Below are positions 37,845-39,878 of a stretch of DNA of 64,000 nucleotides, piece by piece. The stretch is from an uncultured Lachnospiraceae bacterium (GTDB lineage: Bacteria; Bacillota; Clostridia; Lachnospirales; Lachnospiraceae), in assembly GCA_947166015.1 (NCBI GenBank), contig CAMVCQ010000003.1:12-64011 (forward strand), written 5' to 3'. Positions within the stretch are counted from its first letter, which is position 1. Each line of letters starts with the position of its first letter. The notes under the pieces are model-generated. The model searched no databases. It was not told the DNA's origin and worked only from the letters and a program-made list of their open reading frames with translations. Both the position numbers and the translations under genes were made by a program.

Positions 37845-37855
<11 letters not shown>

Positions 37856-39878
37856 CTGCTTTTCCCTTCTTGTAGTTGATCGCTTCTTTTTCGATCTCCT
37901 CCTGAAGCTCAGGTGAAAGATCAAGGTATGTCTCAAGCTGTGTTATGATATCGCTTTTTTCCGCATGGAAATACTCCAACAGCTCTTTTCTGAAATCAAG
38001 AATGTCGTCCACAGGTACATCGTCAAATACATACGTATTTGCACAGACAAGAATAATGACCTGATCCGCCATTGAAAACGGATGTCCAAGTGGCTGTTTC
38101 AGAAGCTCCATAAGTGCTCTTCCGTGCTGAAGCTGCTTTTTCGTCGCGTCATCAAGGTCTGACGAAAACTGCGTGAACACTTCCATTTCTCTATACTGTG
38201 CCAAGTCGATCCTGACTGAACCGGCTGCTTTTTTCATAGCTTTTCTCTGCGCCGCACCACCGACACGTGACACTGAGAGTCCGACATTTACGGCAGGTCT
38301 TTGACCTGAGAAGAACAACTGGCTCTCGAGATATATCTGTCCGTCTGTGATCGAGATAACATTTGTCGGTATGTATGCCGATACGTCTCCCGCCTGAGTT
38401 TCTATGATAGGAAGCGCTGTGATAGAGCCTCCTCCGGCTTCCGGCGAAAGTCTTGCCGACCTCTCAAGCAGTCTTGAGTGCAGATAGAATACATCTCCCG
38501 GATAAGCCTCTCGTCCCGGAGACCTCTCGAGAAGAAGCGAGATCGCACGATAAGCAACTGCGTGCTTACTCAGATCGTCGTATACTATAAGTACGTCCTT
38601 GCCCTGGTACATAAAGTATTCAGCAAGAGCTGTACCGGAATAAGGCGCTATGTACTGAAGCGGTGCAGGATCCGATGCAGATGCCGAAACCACTATGGTG
38701 TAGTCCATCGCACCGGCGTTTTTCAATGTTCCGACAAGCTTCGCTATGGTAGATGCTTTCTGTCCTATTGCTACATAAACACAGATCACATCCTTGCCTT
38801 TTTGGTTTAGGATAGTATCCAGAGCTATGGATGTTTTTCCGGTCTGTCTGTCACCGATGATAAGCTCTCTTTGTCCTCTTCCTATCGGGAACATCGAGTC
38901 AATCGACAGTATTCCGGTTTCCATCGGTACAGATACGGATTTTCTGTCAACGATTCCCGGTGCCGGCGTTTCGATAGGTCTGTAGTTTTCCGTATCTATC
39001 TCGGCTCCGCCGTCTATAGGGCTTCCAAGAGCGTCCACTACTCGTCCGAGGAACTCCTCGCCCACCGGCGTTCCGGCCATTTTTCCTGTCCTAACGACAC
39101 GCGATCCTTCATGTATCTCAGTATCTGTTCCGAAAAGGATTACTCCGATGTCATCCCTGCGAACATCCTGGACCATTCCTTTGACTCCGCAGTCAAAAAT
39201 GACAATCTCGCCGTAATTTGCGTGGTCTATACCGTCGACGTTGACTATCCCATCTCCGACCCAGGTTGCGACACCGATCTCTTTGTCAGTGGCCTCGAGC
39301 TCAAATTCCTCTATCGTTGACTTGAGAATCGAGATGATGCCTTTTTCCGACTCACTCTGATGTCCCGAGCTCACTGCCTTGTCAAGTCGTTCTTTCAGCT
39401 GATTGATTCGTCCTTTTTCCGACCAGTCAAATTCCTTTGAACCTACACGGATAATAAATCCGCTTTTAAGCGATGCATCCTGCTTAAGCGTTATCTCCAT
39501 ATCTTTGTTGTTGAATTCTCTTCCCAGGAAATCTCTGATCTTCAGAAGCTGCTCGTCCGTCGGCTCTGTCACAAAAATAAGCTCTGCGACTTCATCCGTT
39601 GCCTGCGGTTTTTTGAGCATATCAAGAAAAGCATCTCTTATTTCGTCAAAGAGATGGAAATCATGATTATCACAAAGGAGCTTCAGAAAGCTGCGGATAT
39701 TTTTCGGGAATATCCTGTCGATCACCACATGCTTTGTTTCAAGCGCGATGTTTTGATCCTCAAGCTCCGCTCTGACGGCCGGTACGGCCTCCAATATATC
39801 GTACACATCGCCGATATAGTCTTTGGCGTCGGGAGTTTTCACAAGCTCCGACGCGTAATCCATCGTTGTCTGTGTCAT
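37845..39878 (-). CDS. atpA: Fused ATP synthase delta-alpha subunit
   Basis: Residues about 1-165 are delta-like (MTQT..Y, IDRIFP..FLKLL, GFIIRVG..DWS); residues about 178-677 are alpha ([18 protein letters not shown]). One open frame. Confidence 0.92.

Follow-up and report, generated by a model that had tools for sequence, protein, structure and literature searches.

The ratio of protons passed to ATP made (H+/ATP) sets the smallest ion gradient from which an ATP synthase is still able to make ATP. In nature this ratio was earlier thought to vary with c-ring size only, and 2025 engineering work and a Chloroflexus structure introduced stator number as a second dial. In the engineered enzyme, residues 2-104 of the Bacillus PS3 delta subunit were deleted and the rest of delta was fused to alpha (PDB 9JC1; Ueno et al. 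2025, PMC12229609). The same study noted a natural fusion without the delta N-terminal domain (N-domain) in Acidaminococcus fermentans and in two other UniProt entries. Here we describe a delta-alpha fusion that retains the N-domain, encoded in the atp operon of a 64 kb stretch of DNA from an uncultured Lachnospiraceae bacterium (contig CAMVCQ010000003.1). We call the whole of this stretch the window. Full-length fusions of this kind are a widespread, apparently undescribed variant of the fusion recognised in 2025.

The 9JC1 enzyme carries between one and three b2 stalks, every one of them accompanied by an a subunit, and its content of a and b is about doubled. Its H+/ATP is 5.8 versus 3.0, and it makes ATP at half the usual proton-motive force. 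Each a subunit touches three c subunits, and the c10 ring holds three a subunits. According to the same work, the N-domain of delta occupies the pseudo-threefold axis and binds two alpha N-termini; the third is bound by the C-terminal domain (C-domain) (PMC12229609). In the F1Fo enzyme of Chloroflexus aurantiacus (PDB 9ITJ; PMC12002316), two free deltas dimerise through shortened N-domains, and there are two stalks and two a subunits.

A complete delta joined to a complete alpha

The fused gene begins at an ATG (39878) with a GGGAG Shine-Dalgarno (SD) sequence 8 nucleotides 5' to it, and encodes a complete two-domain delta, a variable linker of 6 to 12 amino acids and a complete alpha. Its parts are as follows.

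37845..39878, reverse strand: fused atpH-atpA gene, 677 amino acids plus stop, supported by Pfam, NCBIfam and protein cluster matches and by metagenome contigs
39612..39878, reverse strand: delta N-domain, residues 1-89, supported by the AlphaFold2 (AF2) model, invariant columns and the ratio of nonsynonymous to synonymous substitution rates (dN/dS)
39366..39596, reverse strand: delta C-domain (b2-binding), residues 95-171 of the complete delta (1-171), supported by phmmer alignment to Escherichia coli and PS3 delta and by AF2
39348..39365, reverse strand: linker, residues 172-177, which varies in relatives and has a low predicted local distance difference test score (pLDDT); the 12-residue stretch 166-177 is 39348..39383
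37848..39347, reverse strand: complete F1 alpha, residues 178-677, supported by TIGR00962 and solved alpha chains

The original prediction, made without database searches, described a full-length delta domain joined to alpha through a linker of about 12 amino acids near 39348-39383. Residues 166-177 occupy exactly 39383..39348, and several lines of evidence establish that delta is complete. Residues 7-165 match positions 11-172 of the 172-position OSCP/delta profile PF00213 (E 3e-19), and a delta hidden Markov model (HMM) made from the sequences of relatives matches over positions 2-167 of its 168. In a search of a representative library, where fusions cannot be counted since fused proteins cluster with alpha, residues 1-165 align to residues 1-164 of related free deltas, which are about 167 amino acids long. 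The Lachnospiraceae delta is of this length, compared with 177-178 amino acids in E. coli and PS3. The window delta is about 10-12 residues shorter than the latter two, with the whole difference in the first half of the N-domain; in the alignment to E. coli delta, window residue 54 corresponds to residue 66, and residue 165 to residue 175 of 177.

An AF2 model of residues 1-275 predicts six N-domain helices (3-13, 18-31, 33-40, 46-56, 59-70 and 74-89; pLDDT 83-93), a low-confidence hinge at 91-94 and a canonical delta C-domain (pLDDT 77-84). The linker has pLDDT below 50 and is predicted to be disordered. Foldseek aligned 170-184 columns to full-length delta/OSCP chains from E. coli, PS3, chloroplasts and mitochondria. 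With its N-terminal helical bundle, C-terminal alpha/beta domain and full profile coverage, this part of the protein belongs to the delta/OSCP family PF00213.

The alpha part is likewise complete. Residues 179-671 match positions 5-499 of the 503-position NCBIfam model for atpA, TIGR00962, at 744 bits (cutoff 484). The Pfam alpha domains in the open reading frame (ORF) are the beta-barrel (201-265), nucleotide-binding (322-537) and C-terminal (544-665) domains. The P-loop GDRQTGKT is invariant among close homologues, solved alpha chains match at the 60% identity class, and the N-terminal helix that binds delta in canonical enzymes is present (178-193). In the AF2 model of the whole protein, which was built from a shallow alignment of 32 sequences, the alpha part has pLDDT of about 25, and Foldseek structural scores for alpha are not meaningful because this model is poor.

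The delta-alpha gene is a genuine, conserved fusion and not an error. In a search space of 5.8 billion protein clusters, more than 100 clusters have the same architecture (PF00213 plus the alpha domains), with 74-100% identity and lengths of 672-694 amino acids. Their source labels include Eubacterium sp., Lachnospiraceae, Clostridium sp. CAG:590 and Lachnospira hominis/intestinalis. Two fusion proteins each occur on 769-800 contigs, and very common gut Lachnospira are among the carriers. The continuity of the junction, which the original prediction had singled out for checking, is borne out by Logan metagenome contigs from three independent studies, which span 39100-39700 with a few substitutions and no insertion or deletion. 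Homologues are annotated as 'F0F1 ATP synthase subunit alpha' by NCBI and as 'Multifunctional fusion protein' by UniRef, and operon surveys may have counted such fused operons as delta-less.

Two other proteins from ENA metagenome contigs, P0014 (793 amino acids) and P0059 (717 amino acids), seemed to be further fusion types. They are unfused alphas with long internal direct duplications in the nucleotide-binding or C-terminal region, which probably result from misassembly.

The only source of delta and alpha in the operon

The operon has the gene order a, c, b, delta-alpha, gamma, beta, epsilon, with the fused gene between b and gamma. The stop codon of atpF lies 2 nucleotides before the delta-alpha ATG, and the ATG of atpG (37855) lies within the end of the fused gene, giving an 11-nucleotide overlap. 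The other genes of the operon are as follows.

40672..41445, reverse strand: atpB, Fo subunit a (proton channel), with the first canonical start at GTG 41352; Pfam ATP-synt_A, E 4.5e-42
40381..40605, reverse strand: atpE, Fo subunit c, 74 amino acids from an internal ATG; Pfam ATP-synt_C, E 3e-20
39881..40366, reverse strand: atpF, a single b subunit of 161 amino acids, peripheral stalk; Pfam ATP-synt_B, E 1.7e-17
36908..37855, reverse strand: atpG, gamma; Pfam ATP-synt, E 1.2e-89
35497..36921, reverse strand: atpD, beta; Pfam ATP-synt_ab, E 2.4e-75
35065..35478, reverse strand: atpC, epsilon, both domains; Pfam ATP-synt_DE_N and ATP-synt_DE

Neither Pfam nor the delta HMM found a second delta in the 64 kb window, in agreement with the predicted operon order lacking a separate atpH. 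The fusion is thus the only source of delta and of alpha in the operon.

As predicted, there is also no stop, Met or SD at the junction. The sole in-frame start-like codon in the window linker is the GTG of V169, which has no SD. V169 is invariant in the closest homologues, but the near relatives scanned encode it with codons other than start codons, and more distant full-length fusions lack the residue. The linker differs in length and sequence among 49 full-length fusions, and 29 of these have no in-frame ATG, GTG or TTG within it. An SD of 5 nucleotides precedes alpha at 8 of 11 unfused loci, versus 5 of 49 fused ones, and is missing from the window. We therefore reject an internal start for alpha: the GTG lacks an SD, its codon is not conserved, and the SDs before alpha have been lost in fused genes.

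The fusion is obligately co-translated, and barring cleavage of the finished protein every alpha carries a delta. With the fusion as the sole source of both subunits, (delta-alpha)3 beta3 gamma epsilon is the only composition possible for the F1 head, which has three tethered deltas in place of a single free one. The expectation that each enzyme has three delta domains thus follows from the sequence; the further expectation, of up to three stators and an altered H+/ATP ratio, is a plausible extrapolation for this form.

Three gene forms among relatives

Relatives were scanned in one genome per GTDB species, and the best 80 of at least 590 matching stretches were examined; nearly all of the 80 are labelled as Lachnospiraceae or as genera of that family. 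Forms were assigned by reading open frames and then scoring with the delta HMM. The complete series, with the two genes separate, fused at full length, or fused and N-truncated, occurs in Lachnospiraceae.

Full-length fusion, 48 loci: HMM match from 2-7 to 166-168; includes the cultured Agathobacter ruminis JK623, Pseudobutyrivibrio xylanivorans DSM 14809 and Muricoprocola aceti
N-truncated fusion, 21 loci: open frame of 581-639 amino acids; delta from the C-domain onward, HMM match from 73-97 to 167
Separate genes, 11 loci, such as L050: delta of 170-179 amino acids, with 0-3 codons between it and an alpha that shares its frame; Eubacterium oxidoreducens DSM 3217 is a cultured unfused relative

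The survey of Lachnospiraceae that had been proposed with the original prediction thus found the full-length fusion at 48 of 80 species-representative loci. Its carriers belong to many genera, and their alpha identity falls as low as about 60%. No separate delta was found within 6 kb on either side of the 69 fused loci, a search that concerned flanks and not whole genomes.

The N-truncated fusions (L018, L021, L022, L037, L043, L046, L048, L049, L053, L056, L058, L061, L063, L066, L067, L069, L070, L073, L074, L077 and L079) are nearly all labelled Lachnospiraceae or Clostridia, and include Butyrivibrio (L018, L053, L061, L069 and L077), Kineothrix (L049) and Lachnoclostridium. At L018 the truncated gene spans 5992..7764, and the stop codon of the b gene overlaps its ATG. 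L074 keeps part of the last N-domain helix. No separate N-domain piece was found within 6 kb on either side of these 21 genes. The natural truncation point is close to that chosen by engineers: in the alignment, M1 of the L018 protein corresponds to about D95 of the window protein, at most 2 residues from the engineered boundary (about A93 of the window, G105 of PS3).

At the unfused loci inspected (L041, L042, L050, L057, L059, L062, L071, L072 and L075), the SD of alpha lies inside the end of atpH, and the delta stop and alpha start are in one frame. In seven of these nine, a single base change in the lone stop codon would fuse delta to alpha; the other two have tandem stops, although a listing by locus gives tandem stops for L041, L057 and L062. 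Because atpH and atpA of unfused relatives share a frame and are 0-3 codons apart, losing the atpH stop codon can produce the fusion.

A neighbour-joining distance tree of the alpha part, which is a single-gene tree with 100 bootstraps, shows truncated forms scattered among full-length fusions. Parsimony on this tree requires at least 10 changes in N-domain presence (median 13 over the 100 bootstraps); for the switch between fused and unfused states the minimum is 3. Truncated and full-length genes form the sister pairs L061 and L047 (97% bootstrap) and L053 and L027 (95%). The fused L080 falls within an unfused clade (100%), and the truncated L018 groups with the window clade at 34%. The full-length fusion is probably the evolutionary stepping stone to the N-truncated forms. 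From this distribution the N-domain is dispensable only after delta has been fused, having been lost many times and in fused genes only. The repeated losses, confined to fused genes, indicate that the covalent link evidently replaces the anchoring role of the N-domain.

Number of peripheral stalks

We tentatively favour, with a confidence slightly short of even, the possibility that a substantial share of the native complexes, if not more, take up additional b2-a stators beyond the first, because the arrangement in 9JC1 gives a canonical b2 docking site on every alpha. A short linker would separate each delta C-domain from the N-terminal helix of the alpha to which it is fused, and the two could form a b2 docking module such as that on all three alphas in 9JC1. 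One retained N-domain would probably occupy the crown axis, with the other two displaced on flexible hinges; stalk occupancy would probably be lower or more variable than in N-truncated fusions. Extra stators would raise the number of H+ per ATP and allow function at lower proton-motive force. With somewhat more reserve, we suggest that two or three stators might be working and that the three N-domains might form a new kind of crown cap. Together with the sister forms, it could then belong to a living evolutionary series in which abundant fermenters of gut and rumen adjust H+/ATP through the number of stators and not through the size of the c ring, the symmetric form having been reached in at least about ten independent steps.

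Several points weigh against a multi-stator enzyme. Ueno et al. hold that the delta N-domain restricts the enzyme to one stalk, and a full-length fusion is neither tested nor mentioned in their work (PMC12229609). N-domain dN/dS is 0.07-0.2, similar to that of the C-domain (alpha, 0.02-0.08), as estimated from close pairs with unsaturated dS. The N-domain is no less conserved in fused than in free deltas: at matched alpha divergence, its identity is 0.38 in fused versus 0.31 in free deltas in one comparison, and 0.52 versus 0.35 in another. The domain spacing of delta is identical in the two groups, and the Y-A..L motif of helix 1 (Y8, A9 and L12) is invariant among close homologues. AF2 models of residues 1-275 and of the whole protein placed neither the linker nor the alpha helix confidently with respect to delta. 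Start and SD signals of the a and b genes, compared across the three forms, show no clear difference beyond a slight tendency to be stronger for a in fused operons, a comparison that used crude start picking and 10-11 unfused loci with phylogeny uncontrolled. Finally, the TCG found at the atpB start, if real, would lower the supply of subunit a.

Conserved N-domain positions are the same in fused and free deltas. The dN/dS values, an identity at least that of free deltas and the identical domain spacing lead us to reject a degenerate or relaxed N-domain. The N-domain is conserved and therefore still does something that matters.

A single-stalk enzyme would account for this conservation. One delta would take the canonical position, with its N-domain axial and its C-domain on b2, and the other two would be idle; the axial N-domain would hold the N-terminal helices of the other two alphas, so that the spacing and motifs shared with free deltas reflect a canonical job that is still needed. 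Under this explanation, the fusion would be a nearly neutral product of a one-base stop loss, and only its N-truncated descendants would have several stalks. The argument of Ueno et al. that the N-domain holds stalk number to one agrees with it, as does the fact that one substitution is enough for fusion in most unfused relatives, and at least three fused/unfused changes are what is expected of a low-cost change. We regard a single stalk as a serious possibility, if a rather doubtful one. Two idle 19-kDa deltas would expose b-binding surfaces at just the height to which membrane-anchored b2 dimers extend, and capture of b2-a would be expected there. Moreover, the fusion has persisted across many genera, with loss of alpha's own ribosome-binding site, and repeated N-domain loss would mean repeated abrupt doubling or tripling of H+/ATP. 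The same exposed domains, long persistence and repeated step to the truncated form are what speak for the multi-stator enzyme.

It is improbable that the fusion is a precursor cut in the linker to give delta and alpha at 3:3, after which surplus delta would be broken down and the enzyme would assemble in canonical form. The linker is short, polar, poorly conserved and predicted to be disordered, and so resembles a protease-accessible segment, but its length and sequence vary freely and it contains no conserved cleavage motif. N-truncated fusions could not work if cut, since a free C-domain would be anchorless, yet they arose at least 10 times, and the engineered fusion is stable as a fusion.

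A sequencing or assembly artefact or a pseudogene, created by a stop loss or frameshift in this assembly alone, is rejected as vanishingly improbable, for despite a nearby assembly-specific oddity (the atpB start codon), assemblies of three independent studies read through the junction with no indel, hundreds of homologues share the architecture and all parts are under purifying selection.

Subunits a and c and energy conservation

The codon at the atpB start (41443..41445, reverse strand) is TCG in the window; in relatives it is TTG, located 7-8 nucleotides after a GGAG SD, and TTG is also present in contigs of the same species from four other metagenomes. The frame is open to 41445 and the N-terminus of about 30 amino acids is conserved, with the first canonical start, GTG 41352, lying 31 codons downstream. 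The TCG must be a base error or else a mutation peculiar to this strain, by which subunit a is reduced in amount or truncated.

Subunit c most resembles the Na+-binding rings of Acetobacterium woodii (4bem), Fusobacterium nucleatum (3zk1) and Ilyobacter tartaricus (1yce). The Na+ ligands of the I. tartaricus ring are Q32, E65, S66, T67 and Y70. Relative to 1yce and 4bem, the carboxylate E and the T and Y are kept, Q32 is replaced by I and S66 by A. With two ligands replaced, the ligand set is not that of a Na+-type c ring, and the substitutions therefore make H+ coupling more likely.

A higher H+/ATP would lower the ATP yield, make synthesis possible at a lower gradient and, in reverse, pump more H+ per ATP. 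For related butyrivibrios, about 1.5 ATP per glucose has been proposed to come from Rnf and Ech gradients through F0F1 (PMC4478896). Such dependence on ion gradients and F0F1 is a physiological setting in favour of extra stators. If stator number is raised, published ATP yields of butyrate-forming fermenters, such as this one, would need revision where they were calculated for a standard ATP synthase.

Neighbouring genes

Directly 3' of atpC is a 382-amino acid ORF (33484..34632, reverse strand) with a C-terminal GNAT acetyltransferase domain, a low-complexity middle rich in Lys, Ala and Glu (KAAKEKAEAEKAAKEKAAKAEAAKK...) and an N-terminal part without a Pfam match. Upstream of the atp operon, 41640..52550 contains a sugar ATP-binding cassette transporter (two permeases and a binding protein). 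Two GH94 cellobiose/cellodextrin phosphorylase paralogues (45282..47720, forward strand, and 50112..52550, reverse strand) have a Cache-domain chemoreceptor between them. These upstream genes fit a motile, fibre-degrading gut or rumen Lachnospiraceae, and runs that hold the locus are from gut, goat and bovine metagenomes. Elsewhere in the window, two EAL-domain proteins (26173..28086 and 30669..32396, reverse strand), one of which has both GGDEF and EAL, are encoded less than 6 kb apart and flank a Cys/Met pyridoxal phosphate enzyme, which suggests that the pair are cyclic di-GMP signalling genes.

Comparison with known systems

The window enzyme shares its eight subunit types, gene order and domain folds with canonical F1Fo (E. 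coli 6OQR and PS3 6N2Y), in which there is one free delta per alpha3beta3 rather than three tethered ones. N-ATPases are delta-less and have the gene order beta-epsilon-(extra genes)-a-c-b-alpha-gamma. The window operon is not of that type: delta is present, the order is a-c-b-delta/alpha-gamma-beta-epsilon, and alpha scores 610 against TIGR03324, whose cutoff is 750. The mycobacterial b-delta fusion (PDB 7JG5 chain d; PMC5709465), which has been noted as a Rosetta-stone protein (PMC5709465), similarly joins a stalk subunit to the product of a neighbouring atp gene. However, its delta is attached to b, there is one delta per enzyme and the ratio of delta to alpha is unchanged.

The Chloroflexus enzyme shows that an F-type enzyme found in nature can have more than one delta per F1 and that delta N-domains can share the crown. 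Its deltas are free and have four-helix N-domains, whereas the window delta is fused and has six predicted helices. The Foldseek match to 9itj_S is weak, and the window protein is not of the Chloroflexus type.

The fusion in A. fermentans (UniProt D2RLW6) is also natural, and occurs in an anaerobic fermenter with an otherwise standard atp operon. This protein and the two other entries are known from sequence alone and are without the N-domain, unlike the window protein. The original prediction stated correctly that there are natural fusions, and engineered ones that bind several stalks (PMC12229609), but missed that both are without the delta N-domain. A literature search that did not cover all journals found no paper on Lachnospiraceae or full-length delta-alpha fusions beyond Ueno et al. 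The earlier view that novelty lies only in the behaviour of the native enzyme is fair, but understates the three-form series across Lachnospiraceae.

The closest match is 9JC1, which has the same order of delta C-terminus, short linker and alpha N-terminus, with a delta C-domain on all three alphas. Window residues 106-662 (557 residues) align unbroken to residues 14-565 of 9jc1_I (552 residues), and the natural and engineered linkers are therefore similar in length. In contrast to the engineered chain, from which delta residues 2-104 are missing, the N-domain of the window protein is complete and conserved, and multi-stalk assembly and an H+/ATP of 5.8 were measured for the truncated construct only. 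The full-length fusion is the very control missing from the engineering work. Because all three forms occur in close relatives, some of them cultured, they are natural test cases for whether native multi-stalk F-type ATP synthases exist and whether the N-domain is limiting. Although it has the covalent delta-alpha link, the window protein retains the N-domain and so is not of the type of Ueno et al. Its 21 N-truncated relatives, which share the gene family and operon of the window and start at the delta C-domain unlike the window protein, are of that type, and the family thus holds many natural copies of the engineered multi-stalk design.

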